Position numbers and translations under genes: made by a program. 64,000 nucleotides of DNA from Marsupella aquatica. Lineage: Eukaryota; Plantae; Marchantiophyta. The notes beneath the pieces are model-generated. The model saw only the letters and a list, made by a program, of their open reading frames with translations, had not been told where the DNA came from and made no database searches. Shown one piece after another: positions 24,861 through 53,200 of this stretch. Each line of letters begins with the position of its first letter. Positions within the stretch are counted from its first letter, which is position 1. The stretch lies in the NCBI GenBank assembly GCA_973895155.1, contig OZ316894.1, positions 10,943,874-11,007,873 on the forward strand, in the 5' to 3' direction.

Positions 24861-25309
24861 TTGTTGCAGCAATGGGCAATGGGGCGTAGAGTCCTTTTTT
24901 TGTGTGCAGAGTACTTTGAGAACATGAGACCTTCAGTTTCACGCGGGCATTGCACAGGGCACCCTAGAATCGAGAGATTAGGTTAGGATGTCCTAAAAGT
25001 ACATTTAATATTAGACAAATTTTAATAATGGATAATCTGGGCCCGGGCAGCATTCAAGTGTGTGAAAGTAAACTGGCCTGAAAAAGTGACAAGGACTCAC
25101 CCAAAAATGTTGAAACGCAGGGGAAGGTTTCCGGTGGGAAGTGGGGGAATACCAACGCACATTTAATGAGTATCCAGGGATTACTCTTCGTGAATACCAA
25201 GGGGGACCCGAGGTCAGAAGTGCAAAACTAAAAGGAGGGGCGGGATTGGCCGCACCAAGACCAATGACAGGCCTTCCAAAGGGATGAGAGCAAAACAAGA
25301 AATTTAACT

Positions 25310-26758
25310 ACTACAGTGGTAGGAGAAGCGTAGTCCACATGAATGGCCAATGCTCATGTACTGGCAGGGAACCATTCAGTGTTTCCGTGATAGAGCTACA
25401 TTACTATCTATCAGGGCTACAGTGAGACATCTGATCCTATGGCACAAGTTGAGTTCATGGCGGGCAGGGTGGGACAGGTGGTACCTGCAATCTGTCCGCA
25501 TGAACTGCACAAAACCTGAATAAGCACTGTAATCAAAACACATATTTAGGTAGATCTTTGTTGTTGTTGATTTCCCAACCTGGATCTTAGCATGATGTTC
25601 GGCTCAATCCTTTCTAAGACAAACTATTCTAAATAACACTATGAAGAATGGACCTAGTGTGCTGAGCTATGGTCCTTCTAAATATTCCAGCAAACAATTG
25701 TTTGTAGGGTATGCCATAGTTTCCCAGGGACATCTCATTGCTCAGGTAGGGGTTAAGCAATAAAAATGTGAGTTGGTTGAAGGCGCAGAGTAGCAGGACG
25801 AGTTGGTGATGCCAGACAGAGGGTGTACTAGACCAGCTAAGAGACTAGGTTGCTCCAAATGTAGTGTAAGATGTCCTCCTATTCTTGCAAATTGCACCTA
25901 GTACACCAAGATGATTTGTCGTACAGACTCAGGTAGTTGGGGGTTTCTCCATTGCTGTGTAGCCGGGATTCTGTAGATCAGTTGCCAAAGGTAGCAATTT
26001 TCAGTTGCCGCCCTAAACAGAAGCCAAGTATTCTAGCCCATTTGGATATGGCCTTGTGAGTAGCAGTACGTCCTGGCTTGCCCCTGGGCACAGATGTGCA
26101 GTGTTGGTGTCAAGGAAAGATCTTCCATCTCTCCAGTTATACTGAGTGATAATGGCCAGGTCCCCAATGGGATTACCAATATGCTGACTGACCGTAGGTG
26201 TGGATGTGAACATTATGATCAACACACAGTTGAGTAAGGAGCTCACCGGAGGAGCATGGATAGCAGTAGGGTACAGAAAACCATTGGTCACAATGAACAA
26301 ATTAACCGGCTTGGAGTGGCCATGGGATCGTTGCCATTGTGAGGTGATGTGTTTGTGTGGTACCTTGAATTCCCAAATCAGGTGAGATTTATTGGGGAAG
26401 ATAGCGTCCATCAACAATGGCTCCTCCAACTCTCTATCAGAGTCCAACTCAGGTACAATCTTGAGATTGGCCAACAGATTTCAATAGGCAATTGCACAGT
26501 TCCTAGGTAAAAGTCAGGATCATCCTCCCAAGACAAGAGTTGCCCATCCGATGAAAGGACATCCTTCATAGTCACAAAATCAACATGATAGATTCTGGGT
26601 TGTGGATTAGACAAGCCCTTGACTTGGTTGCTACGTATGTGGTTGAGGTGTGGCCTCTAGAGCAGCAGATTGCGCCAGCCTTCCAAGTGACTAGGTGGAG
26701 AGGGGCGTAGCTGCTTCTTGATGACATTCTACCCGATGTGGATGTTGGTCCATACCTT
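25310..26758 (-). mobile_element. L1-type LINE, 3' segment (post-RT region and zf-RVT), degenerate
   Basis: CYLWQLIYRIPATQQW...WCTRCNLQE*EDILHYIW zinc-binding motif at ~25830-26000. The frame joins the 43638 segment across the CACTA TSD (PFGGC-K-VWTNIHIG*NVIKKQL). 3' end approximate. Confidence 0.8.
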
Positions 26759-29700
26759 CACTAGAAGAAAACCACCCATTCTGAGACCCTCCCCTATGTG
26801 ACTTGTGCGAGACCTTCATAAATATGCGACTCCAAGTTTGTGGGTGTCATGTTAGTTACATCATACCAACTAAGTTTTGGTGAGGTTGTGGGAAGTCATG
26901 CTTACAACTTTATCCAATGTCGCTATTGTAACACTGGTAAGTAAGAAATAGGTAAGTTATGTTAGTTACTCCACAATAGTGCAATATGAATTGGACATCA
27001 TTTTTTAAAATTCCGTCAGCATGCATACCCCATTAGCCAATTTCGGATGCCAATCCCTAATATGCAACTCCCGGTGCAACTACATATTGCACACTCATGG
27101 TTGGCGAGGTCCAAATATAATGGGTATAAATATGGGGGTTTTCATCAGAATGGTGGGTACTTTCACTTATAATGTGGATTCATACCTGACTATATTTGGC
27201 CTTGTTCTTGACCAAAGTGCACTCTCCCCACATTGAACTTTTTGCTAAGTCATTTGCATTGGTTCTTTTATGTCCAAACCAACCTGTTTGCTAAGTCACT
27301 CGATGGCTGCCCACATGTGAGGGGTACTACTTTCCCTCAGGGTCAATGTACCTTGGAGGTTGGTTTTGCGAGAGATTTTGGGGGTACTACTTGCCCTAAG
27401 TGTTCAGGGTCAGTGTGCCGTAGAGGTTGGTTTTGCGAGGGAAATTGGGATTCGACGACCTTCATTCCAGCTGCACTCTTCGCGAACTTCCTGCAGGGTC
27501 GTTTGAAAGTGTTTGAGCGAGACTGGACTTTAGGGTGCAAATGTGTTTAGGATTGGGCCTGCTACGAGCGTCAGTGTGGAGGTCTGCCAATCAGTTTTGA
27601 GGGGAGTCCATTGTCGCTTTTCAACCTGCTGGTGAGCTAAGCTGCTATTGAGTTTCAAGTGAGAGCTGCCGACTTGGAGTTGAGCTCTACGAGGTGGTGC
27701 CTGAGTGTACATCTGCTCGACATACTTTTGGGAGCTCGTAGTTGGTAGGAGGGCCAAGTCGTTGCACAAAAAGTTGCAGCCGTGACAGTGCAAACTAGCT
27801 AGGTGGAGGCTGGTTACTACAAGCAAGGCGAAGGATCACTGCGAGCTAGGTGGAGGAATGTTGCGCTGCTTCACATTGTCAAGAGACATGCTGCATCAGC
27901 CCAAGTAAGGTTGCATTGACCTATCTATCTCTATGTCTATAAGGTCCTAACCGATAGTCTGCTTAGTGAGGTCCTGCTTTAAGCTACATTTGTGCGATTG
28001 ATTGTGTCCTGAGAAGCTTAACCATCACATGGGGGAACGGTAGCAAGAAAGGAGGGGTGGAGCCTGATGGTCGCCAAATATTCAAACAGGGTCGCCTTTT
28101 AGGGTTTAAGAACAACTCATATCCTAAGTCCCGGTGTTGCAGTGGTGTCCCCGACCCTAAGATGCCACCCGAAATCATCTTTCTTGTTTCCTGCTGTTGC
28201 TGATCATGTATGTATGTTCTCCCCTATTTTTGCTTACTGATTGGTCTCTCCACACTTCTTGCTTGACATGACTGTTTTGCTCCTCCCTGTATCAGAACAT
28301 GCCTTGTGCCCCGTGCTCTGGCAATGGGGTGGGGGGGTGAACAGACGGCCTTAAGGTCCACTAAATTTATAGGAACCGTGCAATCGTTCAGCTGATTTTA
28401 GCAGCAAGTTCCCTTGCTTTCCCCTGTTTTTGCTAGGATCCCTCCCCACTAATCACATGCATCCTTTACTTTTCTCGGTGGCCCGTGCACCTGCCTTCCT
28501 ACTTTCGTTCTTATGGACTTTCCTTAGGTTTTCTTTCACCTGATTTTGGACTTTTTGCTCCGGTGCAATCTGTCTTGACAACTTGTGTTTGTTCTAATTG
28601 TTAATATCTCAAGAGGGTCGTCAACTAAGCTCACAGGAGTCAAAGCTAACTACAAGCTAGCAAATAGGGAGAATGCTCCCAAGTCGAGTCAGGAGGAAGT
28701 TACTAAAACTAGACCTTCAGAACTCTCAAAACTGGAAAGTGAAATTCAGCTTGAGACACGCAGCTGAAGGCCACAAGGATAACTATATGGCCACGCTGTC
28801 CCTCATTCAAGTCCAAAGTCCTCTTCAGATTGTCTGAACTCCTATCTGAACTCCTGAACTGGATGAAGTCCTGTCTGAATGTGAAGTTCAGATTGGCAAT
28901 CTCAAATGGCAAGTTCTGAACTCTTGTCTGAACTTCATCCACCCTTCTAAACTGGGATTTGTGCTACGTGTATAGACTCCACATTGTTGCTTCTCCCTTT
29001 CGGGCCAGCCCTCCTTGTGAAACGTAGGAGCACGATCATGGCACTTACACATAGTCTGACATTCAAAAAATGCTACTTCTCAGCAGCATGTTTCGAGTAG
29101 TTTGCCTGTGTGTTGAGCCCGGGGTTGAGCCTAATTATTTGTTTATTGCTTTAGTAACATGCATGGCCAATTGGTTTCTCTTCATGTAAAGGCAAGTTTT
29201 TGAAACTTACTACTTGAATTGGTGGTTTGAATTTAGTTAAGTGTTGAGAAATTAGCATTCACACTAACTATTTTTCTTTTGTGATTGAGTTCTCTTTGCT
29301 ATTGAATGTATTGAATAATTATTTCATCACAGAAATTTTCAGAACAAACACGGAAGCACCAGGGGGCTGAGGATTGGATATTGAGGCTGAAGACATTGAG
29401 GTAATAAACTGGGTGTGGTTCGGGTGACAATGTTAGCAACTGGTGCTTCTTCAGGGGAACTTCCCATGTGCAATTTATCCACACATGATTGACTTTGGTT
29501 CTTGCTGTTTTTCTTTTGGTGTACTCTTCAGTTTGGTGTCACTCTATCCTTTCCTGTAGCCTCGAAATAGGAACACACCTGCTTAGTGGTCCCCAATTGC
29601 CCAATGATTTATAATGACTGTGTCTAGGCGATGTATGCATTGCATGTTCATTCCAGAAGAATGAATATGTACACTTTGCACAAACCTGGACAGATTTTGA

Positions 29701-30105
29701 ATGTTATTTATCTGAGTTTCTGTTGTGAGCTCTGACTTGGAGCCTTAACATTTGTGTTTCTGTGGGGCTGAGCAGAGTTTGTTCCGTCCAGAAGCTGCTG
29801 TACTGAAGTGATCGGCCTCCGGCTTGGAGGTGAATCTTCAATTTTTTGTGGATCCAAGTGACTTCTGTCCAGCTGAGTTTTGCTTTGTCGGGACGATTGT
29901 GTTTGGCTAAGATGCTAGATTGTGGCTTGTCTTCTTGCTTCCAGCTTGTGTATATTCAATTAATAGAAGTTGGGAACGAAGTGATAATTGAATTTCCTTA
30001 TATTAAGCATCTTGACCTAGAAACTCAATACATAAACTCCTGGAGTCCCTCGGGACATAAAATGAGCCAAATTGTTTCAAAATTGGGAACCTGCACCCGC
30101 ACTAC

Positions 30106-30445
30106 TCAAACAAATGTGTTGGGCTTGGTGGCCTTGTAAGTCGTCTTTAGCTTTCGCGATGGAGGTTGAATCTTGCGGTACATCAAGGGGAACTTGATCT
30201 TTGAATCATGGAACTGCTTGGTACTTTCTCGCTTGCACAGAGAGACAGGGACTGTCATAGTCTTGATGATCTGGATGCAAGGGAACCGAACTCTATGACA
30301 AGAAGCCATCTCATCATACATCTGCTGTGTGGTTGTTTAATGTGGTATCACGATATTTCTTGTACATGTTGGGATAACCTGTACAACTCTGATACCTCAC
30401 CCAGATACCAAAGTTCTTAATTGTGGTGGGCTTCTTTTCGAAGAT
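30106..30445 (-). pseudogene. RPL18A: Captured terminal exon of 60S ribosomal protein L18a (eL20)
   Basis: After acceptor ctaccag: [37 protein letters not shown] [frameshift] [22 protein letters not shown]...[40 protein letters not shown], clearly plant RPL18a. Confidence 0.93.
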
Positions 30446-31452
30446 CTGGTAGACACATTATTCAGCATTTGCTAACTTCGAAACTAGAAGGGTAACACAT
30501 TAAACAACAGAGAAACTCACAACATCCTCCTTTGGTCCTTCAGAGTCTGTACTTTGATTATGAAGTTTGACTGAGTTTCTGTTTACTGAAAGAATGTGAC
30601 TGTGTAAGAGTTCCGTTTGGCAGTGGATTGGTTGAAGCACTTCATGCTAGTGTGTTGTCCACAGCTCTTCAACCAGCTTTCGTCTTCCTTGTCTTTCACC
30701 ACTTACGATGACATCAATTCAGCTAAGACCATAGAAGGTTCCAAAGCATCTAACTTGTAAAATCGCATTCTGTTACATCAAGGACTAAGGTGTTGGGTGC
30801 CAAAGGAGACAGCACAACAAACACGCTGAAAGACTTCAGGACTGGGTTCAACAAGGTAGTGAAGGTGCTTAGAGCCATAGTAAGTATGCATTCTGTATCT
30901 TTCTCTGTTGATGTGAGCTTGTGCATAATGGGAGTTGTAGTTGGCAAGAGTTCCAAATATGAATAGATCCAGAAGTATGTGATCATGTACTTGCTCTATA
31001 AAGTTCTGAAGATATAAGCATTTTCTGTTAGACCAGGCAACTTGGGAGTTGGTAAGTGTCACCTGCATCTGAGGGGCTACACCGGGGCATCAGTGGAGGT
31101 TCACTTGCACAACACGACAACCAGTGAATTTTCTCTCTGCTGCAACCTGCAAGGTGAGACTTTCGGTCTTTCTGGATGAAAAAACAGGAGTTTAATATGA
31201 TTGATATACATGTTCGTCGAGAATATGGGTTTATCACCAAGCTCTTTGTCTTAGGAAACTCATAAACTCAGAATCAAATATGTACTATGCACGTTTCATG
31301 CTATGTGTATACTATGACCTGTAGTTGGAACCAAGACAATGAGTGGGAACTGATTAGTTTAGGTGGTTGCTGTTGGCGAGGCAAGTCGACCTCCTGCTCA
31401 CCTTGCTCATCAAAGGACGTGAACAGAGGACATCACAACGAAAGCAACACTT

Positions 31453-31902
31453 ATGGTGAGGACCCGCAACGCTGAACATGTGCGACTTGCACGCAAGGCA
31501 GAGATGTTGCGCCTTGAGTATGTCAGACTTGGGATCCTTCCAGCCCAGTCTGCATGGTACTTTGAGTACCCTGTTGTTTCCAGGAACAACTACAGCCGGC
31601 CTCTACCTGCTTCAGTACCCTTCCCGACATCCTTGGTATTTGTGTCTCTTGTACATGACCCGCCACAAATTAGGTGCCAAGGGTGTGTACACAGTTGCCA
31701 ATATGACTGTCCTGCCTGTAGGGCTTCTGGCCCAGAATTGGATGACCGTTCTCTTGGATGCCGATTTTTGCACAGAGCACAATGTATCATCTGGAACCAC
31801 TCGCCATCCTGCAGTGTGCCTGGTGATGTCACTTGTCCTGCCCTCCCAGACCCCACCACCGGTGACTTTGGTGTCTACACATGTTTGGATCACATGCTCT
31901 AG
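31453..31902 (+). CDS. CACTA accessory ORF1, Cys/His-rich putative zinc finger (PHD-like), 149 aa
   Basis: Open from ATG to TAG; CQGC..CPAC..CRFLH...C..CLDH pattern; basic N-terminus MVRTR. Family not recognised with certainty. Confidence 0.5.
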   Translation: MVRTRNAEHVRLARKAEMLRLEYVRLGILPAQSAWYFEYPVVSRNNYSRPLPASVPFPTSLVFVSLVHDPPQIRCQGCVHSCQYDCPACRASGPELDDRSLGCRFLHRAQCIIWNHSPSCSVPGDVTCPALPDPTTGDFGVYTCLDHML

Positions 31903-32602
31903 AGGACCACTTGTCACACCGCATGCACAGACCAGATACCATTGACCTATAGCTTAACACTCTGACTTCAACATAGAGGATATTTACTTAAAATTTTGAT
32001 GTATGAGCAATTTTGGGTCCAGGGTTTAGGGTCAACAGTACATAACTTATATCCTATTATGCCTGCACTAAGCAAAATATCCTAATTTAAGAGGCTAGCA
32101 AACTCGCATAAAAGTCTCTATTGAAAGACTGCTTTCATGACTGCTTTAACCTGGTGAACATTGCAACGTTGAATGAATTAATGGGCCATGTGATAATATG
32201 CAAAATGTGATTTATGCCTCACTTATTTGTCTCAGCCACTATCATAACCTATTTAGGATGTATAAATTTCAACCCTTATGACACTGCTTCATACCAATCC
32301 TCTTCGAAGAATGCCTGTTTTACATGTCACGACTATTGTATGTGATTCAAATGCATGAAATGTTGTTGCAGATCTCCTTTGGTGAATCATAGCCACAATT
32401 AAAATTGAGGTGTTGGTGGAGAAATTGTATTAGGGGATCAGTTTTGCGTGTGGGCTCAACATACCAAAAGTATGTGTGCTTCGCATCCTTGTGTGGCCAT
32501 TCCAATTCATTGCAGTAGCAAATGCCTTTGTACCTTAAATGCTAAATATATTTTACTTTCTGTGTAGTCTGCTAAATTGTAGAGTCTATCTCATGCGCAG
32601 GC

Positions 32603-33285
32603 ATGGCACGGCCTAAAATTCAAGCCAAAAAGCGTGTGACAGAGGTGAGAAACACAGGTGTACTTGGGGCAGATGCTACTAACTTCTCTGCAAGTCAGAT
32701 TTTCCAGAAGGCAGCTCATTGTTGTGCCATTTGTGACGATGGTGGGGGCCTGGTCATTTGTGAGGGCCCTTGCATGAGGCATTTCCACCTCAACCCGGAG
32801 TCTGACCTTGCTGCAGAAAACAACTGTCCAGGGGTGGGCCTCCCGTCAACACACCAGGGAGATTGGATGTGCACTGATTGTTTGGAGAAGCAGGCTAAGT
32901 GTGCACAATGTGGGAGTTGTTGGGGTCCTATGAGGGCTCTATTGATGCTGCAGCAAATGTTAGGAAATATCCAGACCGTTTTTGTGTGAGATTTTTCTAT
33001 TTTGAGTGTTTGCCTGCTCATGCCACAGCTTGCCCACTTCATAGGTGCAAGGCATGTGGTGAGCATGATGATGACTACTGGACTGACATAGTCCACTGTG
33101 CTAGGTGTCCCACTATGTGGCACTATCATTGCCTGAAAGATCATCAAGCAGAGGGTTATGCTTGTGACAGAGAAATCTATGATCACTCTGCACATGGTGT
33201 TGATCGATGGATATTTTATTGTCATCGCCATGCCATTGATCCTACCTCGCGCACTCCTGTGAGAGATCACATATCTTGGCTGTGA
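32603..33285 (+). pseudogene. CACTA accessory ORF2, stand-alone EDM2-type composite PHD cassette (one frameshift near 32912)
   Basis: CAICDDGGGLVICEGPCMRHFH...C...W.CTDC...KCAQCG | LGS...C.RFF..EC...CPLHRCKAC...CARCPTMWHYHCL...IFYCHRHAIDPTSRTPVRDHISW parallels the EDM2 PHD region as I recall it (CAICDNGG..CCEG.C.RSFH ... CPLHKC..C ... CRRCPKSYH ... IYC..H.ID....TPVRDH). Confidence 0.85.
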
Positions 33286-33877
33286 AGCTAAACATTGTAC
33301 ATGCACAGTGCACCTGATGTGGATGTACTATTTTTTGAGATTGCAGAGATTCCAATTTTGAAAAGGAGTTGGGTAGGTGAGTTTATATAGGCAGCACTTA
33401 TCTTGTGCTCTGGCGTCAGTGGCTGGGTACATGCCTATACAAACTTATCCTTACAAGCCTTCTTGGAAGTATTTAGGCTGAGTGGTCATTTTCATAAACA
33501 CTTTCATCAGACTGCTAAATTAAAACAGGACTTCTAAGTTGTAAGCGTATAAATTATCAGGCATGCAATTAATCAAATTGCCCTATAAGTTTATCATTGA
33601 ATGTATCCTCCTTTACAACAAAATATGTATGTGCCATGACAAGTTGGTTGCACTTCATTTCACCACGGATATGGATTTTGTAGTATATATTCAAACAATG
33701 TCCTGCATCCGTGCAGGTGCCTAGTACGTATTGTTCACATATCCCTTGTACCTATCAAAATCGGACCTGAGCACCAGTGGGCCAGATCAACTCAAAAGGC
33801 AGGAATTTTGTTGTCCTTGTATTGTCAGGTGAACCCATTCTTCCAAAATTCACTGTCATCACGTAGGGTGTGTGTAC

Positions 33878-34750
33878 ATGGAGCCTGGTAAACGTAGAAA
33901 GTGTGACCACCCAGCAGTGTTTACAGGGGTCAGAGCGATTTTGGTCCATGGCCAGCATGGGTTGACCAAAGTGCATTGGCCAACTGTACAGAAATGATTC
34001 TCTGAGCTCCATGGCACTGTAGTTCAGGACATCACTCCAGAGACTACACATGTTGTTGCAGGGACATGGCTATCAGTGATAAAGAAGTGGTCATGGTCCT
34101 ACATGAATTCTGCAATTACTAAGCAAGGCCTAAAAGTAGTTGAGGCCTCTTGGATCACAGATTCCATAGCACATAAGATTGTACAGGATACTGAGCAATA
34201 TGAGTTGTGGGAGGATGAAGAAGCTACTGCATCAGCTTGGGCTGAACAAGAAGTCTGGGAAGCAAAGGCACGGCTTGCTGATCTCCAATATGGACCTGTA
34301 CTCAACAAAGGACAGAGCTCTACAAGGCTGAAGAGTATGTTGGCTGAGGAGACGAAGCAACCAACCCCCATTCTGAAAGGGCTGAGCATGGTATTTGTGG
34401 AGGCGGGAATTGGAGAGGTTAAGTGCAAAGTGTACAAGTCCACAGTGCTTGACCTAGGTGGGACAGTGGAGGAGAATATAACAGAGGACACCACTCATGT
34501 CATTACTAAGTCATATCCCAAAGCCTGCCGCAAGTTTGGGAAGGGAGACATTCGCTTTTATGTCATGTCCCATAATGTGTTTGTGGTTTCATATGCTTGG
34601 CTTGTGGAATCAGTAGCAGCTGGGAAGCGTCAAAACCCAATGGACTATGATCTTTTTGAGGCCTGGCCATGGAAGGGTCAGGATCCTTACAGAGAGGACT
34701 ATGAGACAACAAGTGAGGAATGGGTCATTAGCGATTCTGAATCAGAGTGA
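33878..34750 (+). pseudogene. CACTA accessory ORF3, tandem BRCT protein (Pol lambda-like BRCT), 290 codons with one in-frame TGA at 33995
   Basis: MEPGKRRK..VFTGVRAILV...*FSELHGTVVQDITPETTHVV...VVEASWITDSI (BRCT1) and ILKGLSMVFVEAG...LGGTVEENITEDTTHVI...KFGK...SYAWLVESVAAGKRQNPMDYDL (BRCT2); acidic tail. Confidence 0.82.
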
Positions 34751-35324
34751 GGAGTAGTAGCATCAGTTTGGACACAAGTTTTTTTGTATAAATCAGATCA
34801 TTGAAATAAATGTGATCTTTGAACTAATGTACCTTGTTATGGTTGGTGGCAGTTGGGCTTATTTTACTGTTGGCGGATTGTTGTTTCCTGCTGCCTGGGG
34901 GTGTCACTGTAAACGTACATGCAGAGGCGGTACATTTGAGGACAGCGGAGGAGGTGGTGACACCCTCCAACATTTAGGAATTTTGTGTCATTCACTTGAC
35001 AATAGGTACACTACTTGCGAACCTGTTTTTTTCTTTTGGGGTGGTTTAGGGTTTGTGAGAATTTAGTACACGTTATGTTAACTCTTTTGGCAGATACAAT
35101 CAGGGATATATGGAACACAAATACCACCATTAGGCATCCTTGTTCACTGCTGTCCATGACTGCAGAGCTCCCAGCCTGTTACAATGCACCCTGGTCACCA
35201 CCCTCCCCAGACCCAGCCCAGGGCACAGGCACTGCCTTTGCATCATCCCACAAGGATATCACGCCATGATAATAAGCTTTGGCAGCGTGAAAGGTTACGA
35301 ACCAGACTTTCAGGAGCCAGTAGG

Positions 35325-38300
35325 ATGAGATGTCCTTGTGCAATCTGCCAAGGATCCCGTACCAGGGGTCTGAATGAGGTTTGGCGGCATATCGCGGTTC
35401 ATGGAAGAGATCCACGACATCGAGTTTGGAATGATCCTGCAGAGGAAGATTCTTCCGACGAGAAGTGGAGGTTAGAATTTGATGCTGCCAATGCTGCAAG
35501 ACGAGCAAGTGAGGTTCTGCCTGGTGCATTTGAAAATGTTGTAGCTGGTCTCTGTACGTGGGTTGTCAGCTCTCCAACGGGATGGTGCTCAGGCAGCACC
35601 ACGTGACGAAGGAATTCATGTGGAAGAGATGGTGAGAGACATCTTCCAAGACTTGGATGCATTTCATGATGGGCTGGACAACAAAGAGGATACGGCTGCA
35701 GATGCAAGTGTGCCCCCTGTCGAAGAGCCTCTTGATGAGTTTGAGATAGGGCAGGAAACCCCTGGGCATGATGGGATGTTTGGCTCTCCCCTGCAAATAC
35801 AGGAAGGCAGGAAGTCTTTGTACCCCGGTAGCAAATGTTCTAAACTGGGATTTGTCATCATGTTCCTGAACATTTGCGGCAACCACAATGTCCCCAACAT
35901 TTTGGTTTATGAGTTGTTGGCATTCTTGCGAACAACTGTGCTACCAGATGGTAATATTTTGCCCAAGAACATGTACGAAGCAAAAAGATGCATATCTAAT
36001 CTTGGATTGAACTATGATTCAATCCATGCCTGTCCTGATGGGCATGTTCTTTTCAGAAAGGAGTATAAAGAATCGTTGATATGCCCTAAGTGTGGGAAGC
36101 ACAGGTATCGGAACTCAGGAAAGTCTATGGTTCCCGCCAAGGTACTTCGTCATTTTCCACTCATTCCCAGACTTCAGCGGATGTTCAGAAGCCGTGCCAT
36201 CTCGGAGATGATGACTTGGGCAACTGACAAGAAAAGTGATGATGGGCTACAACGACATGCTGCAGATTCAAGGCAATGGAAACTCATAGATGAGATGTAT
36301 CCCGAATTTGCTGCTGAGCCAAGGAATGTCAGACTTGGGCTGTCATTGGATGGGGTAAACCCATTTGGAGACAAGAACAACAAATTTTCGTGCTGTCCTG
36401 TAACTATTTTGAATTATAACCTTCCTCCTTGGATGACTACAAAGCGATTTTTTATTCTGATGGTCCTACTGATACCAGGGCCAGACAGTGCTGTATCTGC
36501 CAACATAGATGTGTTTCTGGCTCCCCTAGTGGAGGAATTGAGAAAGCTTTGGGAGGAAGGAGTTCTCACATATGATGTCCTACAGAGGCTTGGGAGGTTA
36601 AACCCATTCATCCTTAGAGCCATTGTCATTCTGACTATAGCTGACTACCCAGCCCATGGGATGATATCAGGCCAAACAACAAAAGGATATTGTGCTTGTA
36701 CTATCTGTGGGCGCAATGTCACCAGTGAGTACTCCAGAGCCCTGCAGAAAGTGATATACATGGGCCATCGTCGTTGTCTGAAGGCAGATCACCCTTACAG
36801 AGAAAGACAGGCACTGATTGCACACTTTGGCAATGAGATTGAGCAACGTGGACCCCCGGCACGAGTGACCAAAGAGGAGATCAGGCAGTGGGGAGCACTG
36901 AGGGATGACTATATCAAACGAGGGGGCAGGGAAGATGGAGTGAGTGATCCAATAAAGCGATATGGTGTAAAAAGACTGAGCATATTGGACTTGGAGCTCA
37001 AGTACTGGAGGGTAAGCCTCTTGGAGTTGATGCTAATTGGGATACATGTTTTGGTTCAGAGCATGTGCATTCATTTCGAAGAGAGAGACTAAACTTGAGG
37101 CATTTCCTGACGCTTTTGCATTGCAACGATGCAGGAGTTTGGGCCAAGCAAACATAACATTGATGTTATGCACATTGAAAAGAATATTTGTGAGAGTCTA
37201 CTCAGATTCTTGTGTGGAGAGAAAGACACTGGTTCAGTGAGATTGGATCTTGAACAGAGGAGAATGAAACCCCATCTTTGGTTGAGGCCACATGCCCACA
37301 GAGCTGATGTGCTCTTGAAGTACCAAGCGCCCTATGTTCTGACAGACACAGAGTGGGAACTATTTGTGCAGAGGTTGAGTTCTTTGAAGGTTTCTTCAAA
37401 CTATGGCAGTGCTTTCAAGAAGCATATCATGACTAGAAAGCTTGGTAGTATGAAAAGCCATGACTACCATATGTTGATGCAACAGGTGTTGCCTTTATGC
37501 CTGAGGGGCCTGTTGCAGAAGCCTGTTCGTACTGTGATCATGCGACTCAGTGATGTGTTTCGTCGTATTTGTGTGAAGGTTTGGGATGAAACACACTTCC
37601 CACAACTGACAGAAGATGTCGCTTAGGTGCTGTGTGACCTGGAGATTTATTTTCCTCCCGCATTTTTTGATGTCATGACCCACCTACTTGTCCATGTTGT
37701 GGAAGAGCTACACCAATTTGGGCCTGTGAGTGCTCGTTGGTTGTACCCTTTGGAACGGTACATGAAGCTACTCAAAGGTCACGTGAGAACATATTACAAA
37801 CCTGAAGCAAGCATGGCTAAAGGTTACATCAAGGATGAGACTCTGGGATTTCTGACCGAATACATAGCACAATATGAGCATGTGAAGACCAGGGTGTGGA
37901 ATTCTGATGAGGAGGAAGGGGTGATAGGTGAAGTACTGGAAGGGGCTGTAACCACAAAGAACCTGACCATATCTATGAGAGACTTGGCACATGACTTTGT
38001 ATTGCACAACACTGTGGTGATGGAACCCTGGATACAGTGAGTGCATACATGTGCTATAATCCAGTTCATGAGCTTAAATGTTGTGTTCGTGTGGTTTTCT
38101 CCTTCAGCCTGTTCATGTTTACCCAAGCTAATGCTGTGTGGTTGTTCGTTCAGGGAGTATGAGTCATTGAAGGCGGCCCATCCCACTGCAGGAACAACTT
38201 TTCCAGGTTTCATGGAGTGGATCAGAGTGGCAATTAGAGAGCATCACGAGACCCACCCAGACATGGATGCAGATGTTTACCTACTGTCTAATGCCCCTAG

Positions 38301-38919
38301 CCTGAAAGTGAAGACTTACAAACGGATGAGAGCATATGGGAATCACTTCCGAGTGAAGGATGGTGACAGTGCCTACAGGGTGACGAATGACTGCGGGCTC
38401 ATCACTGTATTTGAGCAACAGAGCCACAATCACGACAGGGCCTGGATGGAGATGGGATATGTGGGAGAATTAGTTGACATATGGGCTCTAGACTATGGGG
38501 CGGTGTCCAGTCCTGTGATTCTTATGAAAGGTTCATGGGTGCGGCAGGATTGGCTTGGTAACAGGGCTACCATGAAGAGAGACAACGACGGTTTCTTGCT
38601 GGCCAATTTCAGAGGGAAATTGCCCGAATGGTCTGAGCCATTTGTGTTTCCTAGTCAGGTGGAGCAAGCTTTCTTCCTGGATGTGGAAGACTCCCCAGGT
38701 TGGCGTGTAGTGTGTCATAAACAGGCCAGGCAACGTCGGATGGAAGGATCAAACCTTGAGTTTCATTTACACTCTCATAGTGCCTTTGATCGTCGGCGTT
38801 CAGACCAAGTGCCTGTAGTTCATGATAGCGGGGACTTCATTCCTGTGACAAGGGTAGATGCATTTGCTGAAGGAGGCGAATTCAGAGATGCAGATGCCAA
38901 CAGTGTGCCTGTGCCATGA
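35325..38919 (+). pseudogene. CACTA transposase (TnpD/Tnp2), multi-exon, one premature TAG at 37624
   Basis: CPC..C N-terminal motif; IHACPDG, CPKCG..RY, HFPLIPRLQRMF, RNVRLGLSLDGVNPF, YNLPPW, DYPA, HNIDVMHIEKN, MKSHDYH, PPAFFDVMTHLLVH, YPLERYM..LK, EPFVFPSQVEQ.F. Introns at about 35508-35569, 37012-37134 and 38037-38153. Confidence 0.93.
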
Positions 38920-39075
38920 GTAATGTGAATTGTTTGCATGGACATTAGTGAGGGGAAGGATGTGTAATAAAGTAATTCTGAAGCAACACAGATGTATGGA
39001 TGGATGCCTGGTGATTGTGGTTGCATTGTGTTATACGGGGTGACCATAGATGACATGTTTTTGTGGTCCAGTAGG

Positions 39076-42000
39076 ATGGAACAGAGTGACACAGAGATGT
39101 GTGAGTATGAAAGGAAAGCTATGGAACAACGAGCATACGTGAAAGCCAAAATCGCAGAACTGGATCTGGAAAAGGATGTGGCTGAATTGTAAGGGAACGA
39201 TTCTCAACTACACCCCTCCGCTGAGTTTGTGTGACATGAATAGTTCAATGTGGCACTGAAATTGTGACTGTATTCTCATATTGGAATGTCGCAGAGCCAC
39301 AACATTTTCAAAGAAACAAAAGGAGTACGCAAGAAGGGTGACCAGCACTATCTCTGGGCTTGTGCGTCGGAGTGATAGGTTGAGCAAGAAGGTCGTACCT
39401 ACAATGGCAGAATGTGGAGATGACATTGATGCTGCACAGGTGGGTGCAGACACTAGACAAGAAGATGCAGATGATGAGTATTTTCCAGAGGAAATGGATG
39501 AGGATGGGGGTTATGAAGATGAATACATTGCAGAGCAGCCCCAAAAGAAACATGTAAGGAGTTTTCCCAACAAGGTTTTGAGTTAAAAACTCTTGTTTAG
39601 AGGTTTCATATGTTCAGTACTACACATATGTACCTTGCTTAGTTCCTGACATTGTAGTTGGTGATGTGATGCAGCGTCCTGCCAGTTCTATTTTGCCTTC
39701 GAAGCCTGTGCATGCACCATACCAGCAGGGGGGGCTGACCTCTGATCAAGGTTGGCGAGGTGGTAGTAGTGGTAGATCCCAGGCTGGTGCCCAATACTAT
39801 GGCAGGGGGCAAGCTCTAGGTTATGCCCGTGGTAGAGGCAGAGCAGGTCCAAACCCACAATCTCGTGGGTATGGACGTCCACCTTAACCATGGGGATGTG
39901 AGTATATATCTATATGCCAGTTCTTTGTGAAGGCATGGCACTCCTGAATTTCAGACTGCATATCAATTTTTGACATTGTTTGGGATGTATTGGATTCAGA
40001 CAACATGAAATTCTGTCCACCTGCCATTGCATGCAGATTCTGCCCAACCTGATTGGGCAAATGCTAGTAATGATCAGTTCCAATGTCCACAAGGACAGAC
40101 ATGGGTTGAACCAGGTTGGGAGGATGGTGGTGGGTCGTGGAATGAACAAGGTTGGGAAGGTGGTGAAGGTAATTGGCAGGGATATCAAAATTCAGTACCT
40201 ACAAACGTTGGAAGAGGAGCAGGTAATGTCTGATCTTGTCAGCAATGGAAGAACTCATTATATGTGGAGTCCATTCACGTGGGGGGGACTCTGCACATGT
40301 ATAATGATAGAAAATGTATGTGTGCAGGTTGGACAGTCGAACCATCGACTCAAGTATTCACTAATGCCCCTATGCAGATGCAGCACGGAAGGGGGACAGG
40401 TATGTCGGTGAATGTTCAGTTGTTTTCCTACAGTTTGTACTTAGTTTTCAGTACATATGTTTGCACACACATACCTAGAAAGTGACATCATCCGGCCCCT
40501 GTACTAGGCTGGACAGGTGGTCCAGGGTCGCAACAATTTTAGAGTGCAGTCCCTGCACAGGCATCTACAGGCAGAGCTACAAGTATGTACGTTTGAAGAA
40601 TTTTTCTTGAAGTGAAGCATTGAATGTTGCCGTCATCCATTCTGCTATATGTAGTTCTCAAGCATGAATGGCATTGTATTTTCCCAGGTGGCTTCAGAAC
40701 CCCAGGTAGGGTGAATGAAGGGGTGGCCAATACAACGCCCAGTACTACCGAGAGCAGTGCACGAGGGGAGGTGACAAAGAAAGGGAACGTAAAGTTGAAT
40801 GAGAGACAATGGGTGGATGCTGAGTGTCCTCGCAAGAACCGATGGCATGCTGATTTGAAAGCTGAAGTATTGCGTTGGTTAGATGTGAGTGTTATTAATT
40901 TTAAAAAACAGCATCCAAAAGATTGGAAGACTGTATGTGAAAATGTTGTTGCCAAATGGAATTATGTGGGCAGTGATGATGGCATGGACATAGGTTGCCT
41001 AGAGAGTACAGCAGGTAAAATTATCAAGCAAGAGAGGTGGAGAATGCATAAGGCTTGGAAGGAAGGTGGGGAGAAGCCAGATATGCCTCCACCAGCCAGT
41101 TGTGATGATAAAGTGTGGGCAAGGTTAGTAGCTTATTTTGTAACAGATGCTTCAAAAAAGAAGAGTTCACAGATGACCGAGGCCAGGTTGAGTGTTCAGA
41201 ACCCTAATCTGACAGGAAGGACCGGCACTGCACCGATAGCTAAACGTTTGGTAAGAATGAATGGCCTAGCTATGTAATTTATGCTACGCTATGTACTGTT
41301 TTTTAGTGTAAAGCCATATATGTAAACTTTGTTTTTTAGTGTACGTTCCCTGAATATTGATCGATAACTTGTGTTTGTCATGCATGTGCAGAAAGCCCAA
41401 TTGGGGCAAAGCCCTTCAAAAGAAGAGTTGAGGGCTGAAATTGTGAACACCCGGGCTCAAGAGGGTGCATCTGAATCCTCCAAGCATGTAAGTTATATGA
41501 GTTCTGATTGGTAATTGAATGACCTGCGTTGAATTTCAGGTGTACACTGTATATAACATTGATTGTGCATATATTGCCCAACATTTCATATGGAGTGATT
41601 GAACCTATACCCCTGTGTCATGTAGGGAGGTGGATCTTCACTTACAGAGATAAGTGGTCGTTTGAAGGCTGTCAAAACATGTCTTCCAGAGATCAATGAA
41701 CGTTTGAATTCATTGACTGACTTGTTCCATGTGAACTTCAAGACATTAATGGAAGCTGTTGTGTCGGTGAGAGATAAAATTGATTCCAATTCTGCAAGAG
41801 TTCCACCATCACCACTTGAGGTGGCAAAGTCGATGCACTCTTCTGGCATGCCAACGACATGTAGGCTTGAAGGTAAGGCCTTTACAACTGTGTGGGATAT
41901 GATTATTAAATGTATAGTTTGAATTGACATTGTTTGTTGAATGTGTTATTTTCAGTAACATATATTGTGGTTGTTGTGTCCATAGAGAATAAGACAGGTG

Positions 42001-42782
42001 CTACAGAGAAGAAGTATGAGAACCTGGAAAATACTCGCTGTAATTTAGAGGCAACAAAGTTGCAGTCTGTACAAGCAACTTGTTTGACAGAGGGCAGTCA
42101 ACCATGTTTGGATGAGGATGACATTGGCAAGGGAGTGGATGATATCAATGTTGGGGCAAATGAGGATATCAGCAAGCATGACAATGATACCATTGAGCCA
42201 GATTCATGCTATGTAGATCTTGACTCCATTGCAGAGATAAATGATTTGCAGAATGTATCATTCTCAATGACAGGTGTGCCTCTTGTTGAGATAAATCCAA
42301 CCAAAGAGTTAGTTGGTATGACACTCCCAGGTGATGAACCTGCTACTGTGACAGTCCTAACAGAGGAACCTATTGAGCCTAGCTTCACTACTGTGAAGAG
42401 AGGAAGCATGCGCACACGAAGCAAGTCTGCTGGTGGGAGCAAAGCCACGTCAAAGGTTTTATACAAACCTCCAAGAACAGTGCTGACAGAAAGATCTAAG
42501 GTGGAAGTGGGGAAAGCACCTAATGCTGAGGGACAAAGTGGCTTGTTAGCTGTTGATGAGAGTGGAACACGAGTAGGATTTGCCAGAGTGCAGGTTGGTT
42601 CCACAACGTTCCATGGCAAGAGGATTCCCCCAGGTTATTCAGTAGTGTTAGTCACATTACTAGTGAAACCTAAAGCTGTCCTTCCCATTCCAAACACAAA
42701 TGATGATCCTCCTCAAAAGACACTTGGAGATGCTGCAGGTTCTTTGGTATTATGGCCAAGCAAGTTCATAGAGGATCCATAA
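39076..42782 (+). CDS. CACTA ORF2 (TnpA-like), multi-exon; exon structure only partly resolved
   Basis: Ptta/En/Spm-like segment W..LV.YF...S.....AR....P...GR.G.A (41100-41250); C-terminal FHGKRIPPGYSVV.V...A.LPIP...TLGDA.G..VLWP motif typical of CACTA ORF2; low-complexity RG/G/Q exons in between. Confidence 0.72.
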
Positions 42783-43637
42783 CAATGTCATGCCATTATT
42801 TGTTTGTAGTGTGAGTCATGTTATGTAGATTTTAGATGTCAAGAAGCAGTACAAGAATCATGTCCTCTTGGAGATTCATAGTATCATGCATGTGCTTTCA
42901 GTTATCTCATCCTACAGTCATCAATTATGAGTTCCTTGTTTGTCTAAATTACATTGATCACATTGTAAACTATTCCATTGGAATTCAAATGATCTTCATT
43001 TTTTAGCAAGATTGTGATTGTGTTTAATTCTTATGAATGTTTTATGTAGGATCTGCTTATATGATGCTTTGTTTCGTGTGGATGTCATTCATGCTATGTT
43101 CATTTCTTGTATTCAATGTGTTATATTTCTAAAGTTAGAACATCAGGTTTCTATGTATTGTAATGTCGAGTGCTCTCTCTCCTTATGAACTGTCCCTTTG
43201 TGTTCATTAGTCATGGTTATAACTTGCATGTGAACCTTATTAGTTATAAACATGAGTATATAGAGTCCCAAATGGTCCTGTTGTGTGACGCGGGCCAGGG
43301 TCTCCATTGGTCTCTCCTGTGACACTAAATAGTCACACGCTAGTCGTTGTTGAATGCGAGTAAGTCATGTATGTGACTTACGATGTGACTCGCTGAAGTC
43401 ATATTGCAGTCACGTCGAAACAAGGCTAGACTCCACAATAAAGTCACAGATCAGTCACAAATGGGTATCAAGCAAGTTGCAAAGCCCAGTATCAATAGTG
43501 ACTTCCATTGTTTGGTCTCAACTTTTGCAACTCCAAGGGTCACAGCGTGGGTCAAGTCACGTTGAGTCACAATGAAGTCACATGAGCCAAAATGAGTCAT
43601 ATATTGCGGTCTCAGTTCACCTCGGATTCTTCTAGTG

Positions 43638-45900
43638 CTTACAACCACCAAATGGTACAGTGAAGCATGGTGTAAACACCCATGTGAAGTCAATCACCCC
43701 CCAATTCTTCGTACTAGAAAGTTACCGCATGTATAACTACAAGATCCTCCTGAGTGGGTGATCAGCCTCTGCCAAGGTCCAAACAATGAAACGTCTTGCC
43801 AAGGCCCCGAATTGTGCTAGAATAGAGATAGGCCAAGTCCTCCGTGGCTCCTAGGTCTGGTAATTGTGGCTAAGTCTACCCGAGACTGAGCCTTCTCGTT
43901 AGGACTTGCCCAGACATTGTAGTGATTTTCCTTGCAATTCATCCAATAATGTCTTTTGGTTGTCGGCCCATATTGTGAGAAAATACCAGATGGTGCTCAT
44001 AATGAGATGGTTGACCACTGTGACTCTAGCAATGAGAGACCCAGACCTCTTACATATTTGGACCAGCCTAGCTTCCAAACAATCGGACACCATTTTTTAC
44101 CAATTGTTGTTCAGAAATGTGTTGTGCAATGGGAATGCCCCAAAGTTTGGAGGATCAAAGTCATCTTCCCATCTCCATGGTAGACGACGGAACTCAATTG
44201 GGATACAGCCCGGAGGGATGTATGCTGCTTTGGTTTGTTCTTAGATACAAAAATCCCAGATGCCATTCCAAAAAGATCCAAGTGATTGCAGTAGGACCCA
44301 ACAATGCCCATTTATGTTCTAATCAGCAATGATACATCATTAGCAAAAAAACCATCCACATTGTACCCACCAATGGACATGATGTTGACTCCTACAATGG
44401 CTCCACGATCCATAGCCCGTTGTATAATTTTACTCAGGGCATAAATTGCAATAATGAAGAGGAGTGTTGAAAGAGGACAGCCCTGTCGTACGGAGCGCTC
44501 CAACAAGAATGATGGGGCCATTATCCCATTCAGCAACATTGCAGAGGTGGCCGACCCAAAGTTTGCCCTCAGAATTTGCATATGGAACTTATCAAAACCA
44601 ACCTTCTCCATCAGAGTAAGAAGGAAATGTCACTCCATGTCAACTTATCGAAAGCCTTGGCCACGTCCAGTTTCATAAGAATGTAGTGCAGTCTAGATCA
44701 GTCAACATGATGAAGGAGCTTGTTGAGTAAGAGTAGAGAGTGATGGATGTCGTGTCCCGACATAAAGGCAAATTGTTGAGGTGAGATGGAGCGTTGGAGA
44801 ATAGGAATGAGCCTCAGCTGAAATGCCTTGGCCCCAATTTTGTACAACACATTCAGGTGAGTGATGGGTCTCTTGTTGGAAAGCAGACACTGATCATTCT
44901 TCTTGCACAGCAAGACAATAAACCCTCTAGTGAATTCAGAGCTGAAAGTCTTCTCTCTCAGACCATGTATAATGGCCTTGAGGAGAGACGGCCCGGCTGT
45001 CTTCCAATTTGCCACAAAGAATTCAAAGGGACCCCATCCGGCTTTGGACATTTGTTAGAGGCAAGAGCTCTGACATCTTTCTCCAATTCCTCAAGAGTCA
45101 AAGGCAAGCCCAAGGGCAAGTTCAAGCAACACGATCAGCATCAATAATCATATCAGTCTGCAAAGTAATCACTTGAGCAAGTTGATCAGGGTAGATGCCC
45201 TCTGATTTTCCCAAAAGATCCTTGAAGAAATCAGTGGCAACTTTAGCCATCTCGCTCCATTCAGACACCAGTTGCCCATCCTTACGGAAAAGACAGGAGA
45301 TTTTGTTGCTTATCGTTGATAAAGCTTGGAAAATTTATCACCATCCTCAATCCATCTTGATTGAAAAATAAAGTCCATCCATTGGGCACGCTCACCATCA
45401 AATTCATGGATTAACCCCTCAACCTCCTTAACAATGACATGTGCATAAAGATCTTGTGGGGTCCAACTCAAGACGCAACTATGCTTGTGCCAAGTTCCCT
45501 CGTAGAATCAACTCCCATAGATGTCACTCTGCAGCCCTCCGCTTGCCCCAACACCTGTCCACCTTCCTAGCAATCATAAGACAATGAGATATCGTGGCAT
45601 TGGGTGTCAGCTCCTTCTGCTCACAAACCAACCTACATTTGTGCAATTTCTTCTATCTTGATATGCTGTCTATAATTGATGTGCAGTATTCATCTTGTGT
45701 TGAGATATATGTTGGTGGTATTGAGTGGACCAATTGTTGCATAGACAGTGGCATGGTCAGACAAAGAGATCCCTAGCAAGAGAGTGGACGTAATGAAGAA
45801 TTTACAATTCAACTCCTTTGGTAGAGAGTATATCCTCTCAATTCTCCTGATAATCCAACCCCCTAGGGCCAGCCTGAGTCCGAGGGACCAAAACCCAACT
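43638..45900 (-). mobile_element. L1-type LINE, 5' segment (endonuclease C-terminus and reverse transcriptase), degenerate, 5'-truncated
   Basis: RRIERIY...LSDH (APE end, ~45735-45860); NKRPITHLNVLYKI.AK, ISPQQFAF, SVRQGCPLS.LLF, FFANDV (decayed YADD); many stops and frameshifts. Confidence 0.88.
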
Positions 45901-50290: not shown

Positions 50291-53200
50291 TCAATAGTAG
50301 ACTGTCAATGTGTGATGGAATGATGAGGCTTCTATAGATTCTATTCCAGATGACCAGAGCCACCAATCCACCTGTACACTTGTTACCTGCAACAACCGCC
50401 ACTTAGTCAGTAGAACTCACCAGCGAGTGTACTAGACCAATTACGGTAAGGAGGGTATAGTGCCCGATTGATCAGTGCGTCAAATTTGGGCAAATCGCAT
50501 ATTATCTAGTTGAAATGACAAACTCCCGCAAGGGTAAATTTTATTCACATGTTTTACAATTGGATTCCTTTGAATACTCAAATGTTTTAGAGGTGTAGTT
50601 AAGGTAGACTCCTGTGATCCTATTCTTCTTCAAGGAAATGTTTTTCGACTCCAGTGTCCCTAGATTGTTTTTATCTTATGTTCATGCTTACCTGATAATG
50701 GATTGTGTTGTAGGCTGTGAGAGAGGTAGACAAACCTCCTTTCCTAATCGTTTGCAAAGAGTTTCTCGAAGACGCTCAACTGCTGTTATGGTGCAGGCCC
50801 TTATCTCTACCTCCTCCTCCGAACCAGGAGCTATCTTTTTCTGACCATCGACGGCAGCAGCTAAAGTTGAGCTGTACTCTAAAATGCCCCAATGGCGCAA
50901 CACTGCTGGGACGACATAATCAGCAAACATTGTGATGCGATTAATATCCTCGAACGCTCCTAGTCCTTGTCCTTGAAATGCACCCCAGACATCGGCAACA
51001 AATATTTGAGCTCTTTTGTAGATAAACACCTGATGGCTTTTGTAGACAGCATGATCCCGAAAACCTGAGAAGCACATGACGACAACAATCAACAAGAAGG
51101 ATGTCAAGGACTTCTAAATTGGATACCAATTGCAAGGAATGGAAGTATGGAGCAGCTAGATTTACTGACTCCGCTTCAAAGTTGTCCGTAGAACGAGGAC
51201 TTGAATTTTAATATAGTGGAGAATGCATCTTCATCGCCCTAGACTTAGGCAACTTTTGTTCATCGTTTGACTGCCTCCAACTGCCCTGATTTTCCAGTAG
51301 ATATCCTATAGTTCAAAGCCAAGGCCCCAAGTCAGCCAGAGGATTGAAGTTAAGTTGATCTCACCTGGAAAGTGACATGCTACCAGTTCCACGAGCGTGA
51401 CAGCAGAGCAGTCAGATGCTGCAATTAAATTTGAAGCACGACCCTCAAAGTGCTTTTCCAGTACGAAACCCACCTAGCAGGATATATAAATAAATGTCTT
51501 AGACAACCCACCCATCAAAGCCCACGTACAATAATCCATTGCCATCGTCTGATATTCAAAATGCCCTACTAGCAAAATCCTAGCCGGAGAATCAACTATA
51601 AAATAATAGTTCATGTGATCAACATACTTCACATGGCAAAGTGGAAGACAAAAGCACAAGCAAATTTCCAGACCGGCAAGTCATTACAGGAAAGCTTCAG
51701 AGTTCAAAGCCAACACAATTTTCCTTTTAGCCTAGTCTGTCAAAAATCAAATGGGTTGTGGTCGGGGACTAAATCTAAGAGGGGCAGAAGCAGGACAGTC
51801 TGATTGATCTTCTAGCTATACCTCACGAATTAATCGGGCGCGCTCTTCCTCCAAAGGAAGCTTTCGTGGCCACTGAAGAAGCTGCCGCAAAAGGGGGCCT
51901 GCAAAAGACCACATGAAGAAAACATGGAAATTTGAGGCTGCCACTTGACAGAGAACTGAAATGACTGACATAAAGCTACATGATCTCTTTCCTAAACAAC
52001 CATGAGCAAATGAAACTCTATTTTCCGACAAGAGTTCAAACCTGTGTACGTTTGTAAGCGGCTGGCATCAAAAGCTGTGTTATCAACTTCTAAAGCTCTT
52101 TTCAGGCCCCTAGCCAAATGTTCATAATGGAGCTCCTCGTCTACAATCAATGTGATAACGTCAATCCAAGCTGTCCAGGAGCAAAATCATACTTAGCGAA
52201 ACCGTTGCAATGGACGTGTCTACTCGTATGGGCTTCTTATAAGATCCAGGCAAGCTTAAAAGACGTATTCGGCCAAATTAAATAAGAAAGCCGTAGTCAT
52301 CTACACCAGAACAACAAAAATTGAATAGAATACCAAGAAAGCCTCTAGTAAGACTTAATATTGACACATAGGAAGGTAATGTTACACCTCAAGGGTTCCA
52401 AACCTCTTTGTGCATGATTTAGAGCATTGCCCAAGATAAACAAGAACAGTCTTCCCGAAGCTTCCCACCAAGTTTCCCGTACAGATCAACAGACTACTCA
52501 CATTTACATCTTGCAAAAACGCACAAAATATGCATCCTTACCCGGTGCATTTAAGCATGAGCTATTTGTAACGACCACATTGTTGTGACAGCTATGAGAG
52601 CTGGACTTTCTACCCCAGGAGAAACATGTCTTATTTGGGGCGTGGCAAACAGCAATGATTCAAACCACAAGCTCTCGGTCCAAGTCCAAGCTTATGAATG
52701 GTTCTACATTCTGTATTTGAACCATCCTTACTACATATCGATGTTTTCCTACCTTTTGCTGTCAAATCCTCCAGGCCAACTATATTTCCAAGCGCCAATG
52801 CAGACGCCCTTTTAAGAGATCAAATTTTTCCAGAAGTTGTGCCTTGGGGTGCAGCTCCAATCCCACCCATTCCATACCCCAGCATGACCACCCCTCCTTT
52901 CCAGCTCCGACTGAGTGAGAAGCAGATTCAGGCATATAGCATCATCATCTGATCTTATTCTAGTTCCTTCTAAGTTTCTGAAACATCGATTTCCTAGAAT
53001 ACATTCTGCTACACTTTCACTACTACAGTATCAAACAAATTTCATAAAAAAAAAGTCCATACCAACCGAACCGCAAAGTAAAATTCTCACAGAACACAAT
53101 GACTTAACTCAGGTGACAAGAACATTGTTGCCAGATAGTAGACAAAACAAACAAGAAAGAAACGCCGAGCATGGGTGGGGTGAGGCTTAGCACCAGGCCA

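Follow-up and report, generated by a model that had tools for sequence, protein, structure and literature searches.

A stand-alone EDM2/NSD-type triple-PHD gene in a decayed CACTA transposon of Marsupella aquatica

Why would a plant DNA transposon carry a free-standing gene for an array of PHD fingers like that of the host protein EDM2? EDM2 is reported to bind H3K9me2 (PMC9910501), and together with ASI1 and AIPP1 it supports full-length transcripts through heterochromatic introns (PMC9910501, PMC7529245, PMC10241880). The EDM2 complex also suppresses early polyadenylation in heterochromatic transposons (PMC9910501; PMC10241880). The gene in question lies on the forward strand at positions 32603 to 33285 of a 64,000-nucleotide stretch of Marsupella aquatica DNA (the window) and is a stand-alone EDM2/NSD-type triple-PHD gene, frameshifted in this copy near 32916-32918 and with tyrosine in place of two of its cysteine ligands. 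It raises the questions of whether the protein is real, what carries it, how far it departs from EDM2 and what an element could gain from it.

The carrier element

The gene resides in a 16,879-bp CACTA (En/Spm) DNA transposon (26759 to 43637, forward strand), a decayed copy of a multicopy family. The ends of the element are 11-bp perfect terminal inverted repeats that begin with CACTA at 26759 and 43637, flanked on both sides by the 3-bp target duplication CTT. The left CTT and left terminal inverted repeat CACTAGAAGAA span 26756 to 26769 (+), while the 3' subterminal region, the right repeat (43627 to 43637) and the right CTT together occupy 43137 to 43640 (+). In 200 shuffles of the window sequence, a comparable repeat pair with its 3-bp duplication turned up 5 times. 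The element is skipped altogether by two contigs of run X2, which join 26757/26758 to 43659/43660. Transposase domains are recognized by Pfam as Transposase_21 (E 1e-67) and DUF4218 (E 2e-26), with weaker matches to DUF4216, Transpos_assoc and Transposase_24. The preliminary description had called the gene transposon-borne, and the inverted repeats, the CTT duplication and the transposase genes bear this out: the carrier is confirmed as a CACTA/En-Spm transposon. The 3' subterminal 500 bp contain GTCAC 8 times and AGTCA 11 times, against window means of 0.5 and 0.7 per 500 bp; both motifs are sparse at the 5' end. The CpG observed/expected ratio is 0.35 for the element and 0.25 for the PHD gene, a depletion expected of long-methylated DNA.

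All genes of the element are on the forward strand, in the order Cys-rich ORF, PHD, two-BRCT, TnpD and TnpA-like. Directly upstream of the PHD gene is the Cys/His-rich ORF (31423 to 31902; 159 codons between stops, with an ATG at 31452), which may be a third accessory gene and has no Pfam match and no usable ESM Atlas match. None of the element ORFs that were scanned gave an F-box match. Downstream, a stand-alone two-BRCT gene of 290 codons (33878 to 34750) is interrupted in this copy by an in-frame TGA at 33995-33997; its intact relatives of 294-295 aa, at 54-60% identity, were found only in Logan contigs, and its best structural-sequence match is a weak one to the BRCA1 BRCT (E 0.009). The TnpD-type transposase gene (35160 to 38919; Transpos_assoc, Transposase_21, DUF4218, DUF4216) is broken here by a 4-base gain near 35554 and by a TAG stop at 37624, lesions that are absent from most or all contig depth in runs X1 and X2. 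The last gene is TnpA-like and multi-exon (39260 to 42782, its 5' limit approximate), with Transposase_24 at 40624-41274. A YAG lies 2-27 bases 5' of the ATG in four ORFs (PHD, BRCT, TnpD and Cys-rich), a placement compatible with splicing from a shared leader; YAG sites are also common by chance.

When the element is divided into 30 bins, contigs from the public sequencing runs X1, X2 and X5 reach every bin and those from X6 reach 29, with about a thousand variant rows. These runs represent four organisms and studies, one of which may be the source of the window itself. The coverage fits a multicopy family, contig depth not being a copy number. Relative to most of the element, depth roughly doubles over 31148-33471 (in X1, X2 and the non-transposase bins of X5), and the Cys-rich ORF and PHD gene may therefore be common to further subfamilies. 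Some contigs matching the PHD coding region diverge from this copy at 32694-32704 and at 33293 into 129-255 bases of unrelated sequence, which suggests diverged subfamilies or other carrier elements.

The site of insertion is a decayed RVT_1 element, probably a LINE, at 44312-45054 (-) and 25200-26758. Elsewhere in the window are two related Ty1/copia retrotransposons on the reverse strand (about 15.0-20.6 kb and 54.8-61.3 kb), whose pol regions are 71-81% identical and whose terminal repeats are 97% and 99% identical, those of the second element holding 18-bp tandem arrays. One copia element is enclosed by inverted arms of about 125 bp (13744-13868 and 25073-25198), 87% complementary and 11 kb apart, for which no clear target duplication was found. 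Host-type gene pieces, all on the reverse strand, match a trypsin-like peptidase (5140-5919), a fucosyltransferase (Glyco_transf_10; 9551-10138), a PRP1 N-terminus (weakly; 11034-11753) and a queuosine salvage protein (50688-51113).

A damaged gene with intact relatives

In this copy the PHD gene is divided between two overlapping forward-strand open frames, 32576-32989 and 32899-33285. The first has its ATG at 32603 and stops at TGA 32987-32989, yielding 128 residues when translated from the ATG; the second ends ...DHISWL, followed by TGA 33283-33285. The first half matches Pfam PHD-1st_NSD (E 1.5e-5) and the second PHDvar_NSD (E 5.3e-5), both below the curated cut-off. Of the 1616 six-frame ORFs of the window, a profile of relatives matched the two halves alone (E 1e-36 and 1e-54). 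With the first half as query, two proteins were matched among 63 candidates, one of 226 aa (75% identity) and one of 220 aa (70%), both carrying the two halves in one frame and ending at an identical residue. Because these intact relatives span both halves, the stand-alone protein is real, as the preliminary description had claimed, although its length is 226 aa rather than 227. That description had also explained the frame break by one missing G, whereas public contigs bridging 32916-32918 in runs X1, X2 and X3 have a net two bases fewer than this copy, and loose contig ends in X1 and X5 fit the same difference. The break is a 2-base gain in this copy.

An intron at this point was rejected, since the relatives read through it without extra sequence. 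Fusion of the PHD region to the BRCT protein or the transposase was likewise rejected for the close relatives, all of which stop at the identical residue; one search among longer proteins, which is weak evidence, returned only the 226- and 220-aa forms. At 32909-32922 this copy has a tandem TTG where other copies have a single TTG, and the duplication of 3 bases together with a small loss is, speculatively, like the footprint left by CACTA excision.

Two further lesions affect zinc ligands. Numbered according to the intact relative P0001, codons 122 (32968-32970) and 132 (32998-33000) encode Tyr here, while positions 32969 and 32999 are G, giving Cys, in all contig depth of 4 of 4 runs. The decayed copy nevertheless keeps 22 of the 24 ligands of the module. 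Decay is preferred to assembly error as the origin of the frameshift because the BRCT and TnpD genes are broken as well and the Cys-to-Tyr changes are substitutions. The PHD copy in this window is dead, and being frameshifted it could not perform any of the functions proposed below. Since PHD, BRCT and TnpD are all broken here and intact in other contigs or relatives, it is this copy of the element that has decayed throughout; most of the family remains intact.

How far does the stand-alone form extend beyond this element? A HMMER search with the second half against 1.84 billion representatives gave 45 matches at E up to 0.001, of which the first five, along with three others, are stand-alone-type proteins of only 143-245 aa and the remainder are mostly long EDM2-type proteins. 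The names of 30 matched proteins were looked up, and they include rice and mango EDM2, Physcomitrium EDM2 and proteins of Marchantia, Calypogeia, Sphagnum, Diphasiastrum, Ceratopteris, Chlorella and Tetraselmis. Two scans of metagenome contigs revealed no genomic surroundings for the PHD and BRCT relatives; the transposon context is that seen for the window element, and the distant relatives P0003-P0008, P0049 and P0050 are candidate transposon genes.

A tree of 40 cassettes, made by a quick method after leaving out 10 partial and 17 near-duplicate or irregular rows, separates the 10 stand-alone rows from all others by a long branch (SH-aLRT 100), and a quick tree of 28 rows agrees on this grouping. 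The donor is less clear. The best-scoring host relatives are liverwort proteins, and the stand-alone group joins liverwort paralogues with a support of 39; grouping with vascular EDM2 (p-AU 0.48) or with chlorophyte proteins (p-AU 0.60) was not rejected. Liverworts and mosses also have EDM2-like paralogues with the PHD module at or near the C-terminus (P0009, P0012, P0013, P0018, P0047, P0022, P0046). Stand-alone members share 37-94% pairwise identity, and 31-39% with their best host match.

The zinc-ligand positions are conserved throughout this group: all 9 relatives agree at 21 of the 24, and 8 of the 9 agree at each of the remaining three. Among coding variants of the PHD gene 18 of 37 are synonymous, compared with 21-27% expected (pN/pS 0.28-0.39, p 0.0002-0.004), in a test limited by its choice of rows, the 40 best-supported of 103, with 3 dropped (two outside the ORF and one beside the break). 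A single clade at about 40% identity, near-invariant ligands, an excess of synonymous change and a confidently predicted fold indicate that the PHD gene is a selected accessory gene and not a decaying captured fragment.

Fingers, fold and the contrast with host EDM2

The N-terminal 40 codons (32603 to 32722, +) are basic and likely serve as a nuclear localization signal; none of the 6 residues preceding the first Cys is acidic. PHD1 follows (32723 to 32881, +; ligands C41, C44, C53, C57, H62, C75, C90 and C93), then the second finger (32900 to 33042, +; C100, C103, C122, C127, C132, C135, C143 and H146), within which the frameshift and both Cys-to-Tyr changes are located. The third finger is a variant PHD (33046 to 33231, +; C148, C151, C165, C168, H173, C176, C206 and H209) and leads into a conserved TPxRDH tail. 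An AlphaFold2 model of P0001 built from 34 sequences has a pLDDT of 85.6 and a pTM of 0.79, with residues 1-24 disordered, and replaces an earlier 12-sequence model (pLDDT 66.5). Among solved structures, those closest in sequence are the central PHD cluster of NSD2/NSD3 (NSD2 650-794, E 5e-11) and AIRE PHD1. The nearest folds are H3-binding PHD arrays, namely PZP and NSD PHD-C5HCH modules, and the best fold match superposes fingers 2 and 3 on NSD2 PHDvC5HCH (Z 5.5, rmsd 2.6 over 75 residues), which is modest to weak as a whole-chain score. In the ESM Atlas the top-ranked match, with a score of 0.93, is an NSD-like PHD cluster from a streptophyte. No solved plant example of the EDM2 module was returned by the structure searches.

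The likeness to host proteins covers the whole module. EDM2 and its like (Arabidopsis EDM2/ELP1, rice EDM2 XP_025875760.1, Physcomitrium XP_073391891.1, Marchantia MARPO_0005s0286 and the 280-aa MARPO_0172s0021, Calypogeia CAM6087769.1) share the composite module with the stand-alone form, including the 24 aligned ligand positions and the TPxRDH tail. Unlike EDM2, the PHD gene is transposon-borne and a single ORF of 217-245 aa. EDM2 has an N-terminal RFD region and a C-terminal methyltransferase-like ELP domain (PMC7529245); the stand-alone protein has neither, the 226-aa ORF ending after the PHD tail. Short length is not unique to the transposon form, since MARPO_0172s0021 is a near-stand-alone, almost PHD-only host protein that keeps host features. 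The animal methyltransferases NSD2 and NSD3, whose PHD cluster matches in profile and in superposition, differ in turn from this plant transposon protein, which is without a SET or PWWP domain. These comparisons make the protein a member of the EDM2/NSD composite-PHD module family rather than an EDM2 orthologue.

Three differences set the stand-alone family apart within that module. Acidic residues occupy the six positions before the first PHD1 Cys in 30 of 30 hosts and in none of 10 stand-alone proteins, and they are likewise missing in 3 further partial stand-alone relatives. Ligand 132 is Cys in 9 of 9 stand-alone relatives and His in 29 of 30 hosts. Finally, an insert of about 30 residues in the second finger of land-plant EDM2 is missing. 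PHD fingers that bind the unmodified H3 tail are described as using an acidic cluster before the first Cys to contact Lys4, and sometimes Arg8 and Lys9 (PMC3241642). By analogy, the acidic patch of host EDM2-type proteins is predicted to grip the histone tail; its loss suggests an altered specificity or an altered partner, and PHD1 of the stand-alone family may lack the usual mode of H3-tail binding. The EDM2-like identity first proposed has held up in HMM and sequence searches, where the nearest named relatives are EDM2-type and the solved ones NSD2/NSD3, and the zinc ligands and a confident fold are indeed present. The loss of the acidic patch, however, speaks against the cassette simply copying the EDM2 reading mode.

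What the protein could do for the element

We tentatively propose, with less than even confidence, that the intact product is a nuclear chromatin-binding accessory factor that favours expression of the element, by shielding it or by aiding read-through. The module would have been captured long ago from an EDM2-type host gene, with the other EDM2 domains dropped. The protein would enter the nucleus by means of its basic N-terminus and bind nucleosomes on methylated, silenced copies of the element, with a specificity that would differ from that of EDM2 because the PHD1 acidic patch is gone. Its occupancy of chromatin could then shield the element from host readers or let transcription reach the downstream BRCT, TnpD and TnpA genes, much as the EDM2 complex supports host genes with transposon-filled introns. 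Intact copies would be the source, and the protein would act in trans. An expression-support role is favoured because a CpG-depleted element of 17 kb, with four or five genes in a row, would face the problem that EDM2 solves. The fall of COPIA4 transcripts in edm2 mutants is in favour of the proposal (PMC3632883); the derepression of Mu1 in these mutants counts against it, EDM2 being a repressor of some transposons (PMC3632883). Lacking the other domains of EDM2, the stand-alone protein may also fail to recruit ASI1/AIPP1. The mark found preferentially on land-plant DNA transposons is H3K27me3 and not H3K9me2 (PMC11982613), which leaves the mark that the protein would bind uncertain.

Could the protein instead steer the element to its targets? 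In this alternative, which we consider unlikely, it reads a chromatin state, tethers the TnpD/TnpA complex and directs new insertions into repeat-rich chromatin. The chromodomains of chromoviruses are a precedent, and the same has been proposed for the methyl-CpG-binding domain of CopiaMBD (PMC6673714). This copy did insert in a decayed reverse-transcriptase element (RVT_1 at 44312-45054, with the joints of the empty site), and the adjoining BRCT gene fits a cassette acting at the DNA-break step; however, one site is uninformative on preference, host genes are also present in the window, and known targeting readers are fused to integrase, whereas the PHD gene stands apart as its own ORF and shows no obvious region for binding a transposase. 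No more and no less unlikely in our estimate is that the module reads no mark at all and is an adaptor or decoy, binding a host partner of EDM2-type factors, nucleic acid or the BRCT protein of the element, with the effect of interfering with silencing or repair. The clade-wide loss of the acidic patch and the His-to-Cys ligand change in a fold that is kept would suit this, as would the long stem branch of the stand-alone clade, and some PHD fingers are reported to bind non-histone proteins (PMC3241642). Yet the closest members keep the PHD1 motif DDGG-x-L-x-x-CDG common to the H3-binding fingers of AIRE, SP140 and CHD4, and fingers 2 and 3 resemble NSD PHD-C5HCH modules that were solved with H3 peptides.

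A faithful EDM2-like reader that simply masks H3K9me2 is less probable still. Homology spans the full module through which EDM2 binds H3K9me2, with all ligands kept, but the acidic patch is lost throughout the clade, identity to the best host match is only 31-39%, and H3K27me3 is the commoner mark on land-plant DNA transposons (PMC11982613). The most improbable reading is that of a neutral host fragment hitch-hiking as Pack-CACTA cargo, without function for the element. Gene capture by CACTA elements is common (PMC13317346), and this copy is broken; its transposase is broken too, however, so the decay is copy-wide, and intact ORFs of similar length and about 40% identity with common start and end points, together with near-invariant ligands and a synonymous excess, would be hard to reconcile with neutral cargo. 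On this comparative evidence the neutral-cargo reading appears largely refuted.

The proposed role as a chromatin-binding accessory factor has partial parallels in other transposons. Red algal Plavaka elements of the EnSpm/CACTA superfamily are 17-19 kb long and carry separate chromatin-related accessory genes, PAG1-3, which, like the proposed PHD cassette, move between transposon families (bioRxiv 10.1101/2025.02.11.637652). PAG2 and PAG3 are predicted enzymes (SET, adenine methylase, 2OG oxygenase), in contrast to the reader-type PHD array and tandem BRCT described here, and the term PHD does not occur in the main text of that paper (bioRxiv 10.1101/2025.02.11.637652). Proven counter-silencing by plant transposons is mainly the work of VANC proteins. 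VANC, an accessory protein of the Mutator-like VANDAL elements that probably derives from a captured host chromatin regulator, is restricted to eudicots and has no sequence relationship to the PHD protein (PMC13547354; PMC10398659). It binds DNA motifs and causes hypomethylation, as experimentally proven, whereas the role of the PHD protein is predicted. Retrotransposons also carry host-derived epigenome readers, such as the chromodomains of chromoviruses, CopiaMBD and PHD fingers, which sit inside the polyprotein or ORF1, in contrast to the free-standing triple-finger gene of a DNA transposon (PMC6673714). A literature search covering titles and abstract openings, with subscription papers and Repbase outside it, found no transposon-encoded EDM2-type PHD gene.

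A broader scenario is possible, if doubtful: plant DNA transposons may anciently have taken the EDM2 reader module, retooled its specificity and passed it among families in free-standing form, accompanied in CACTA elements by a BRCT gene, as a histone-level anti-silencing factor. If true, such a factor would stand beside VANC, the sole proven plant example, which works through DNA motifs. The loss of the patch, the ligand swap and the deletion of the insert together offer a natural structure-function contrast for the EDM2 module, in a protein predicted to be small, soluble and confidently folded. A selected reader-type protein in a successful CACTA family would make it possible to test directly whether transposons oppose silencing, or exploit it, through histone marks.
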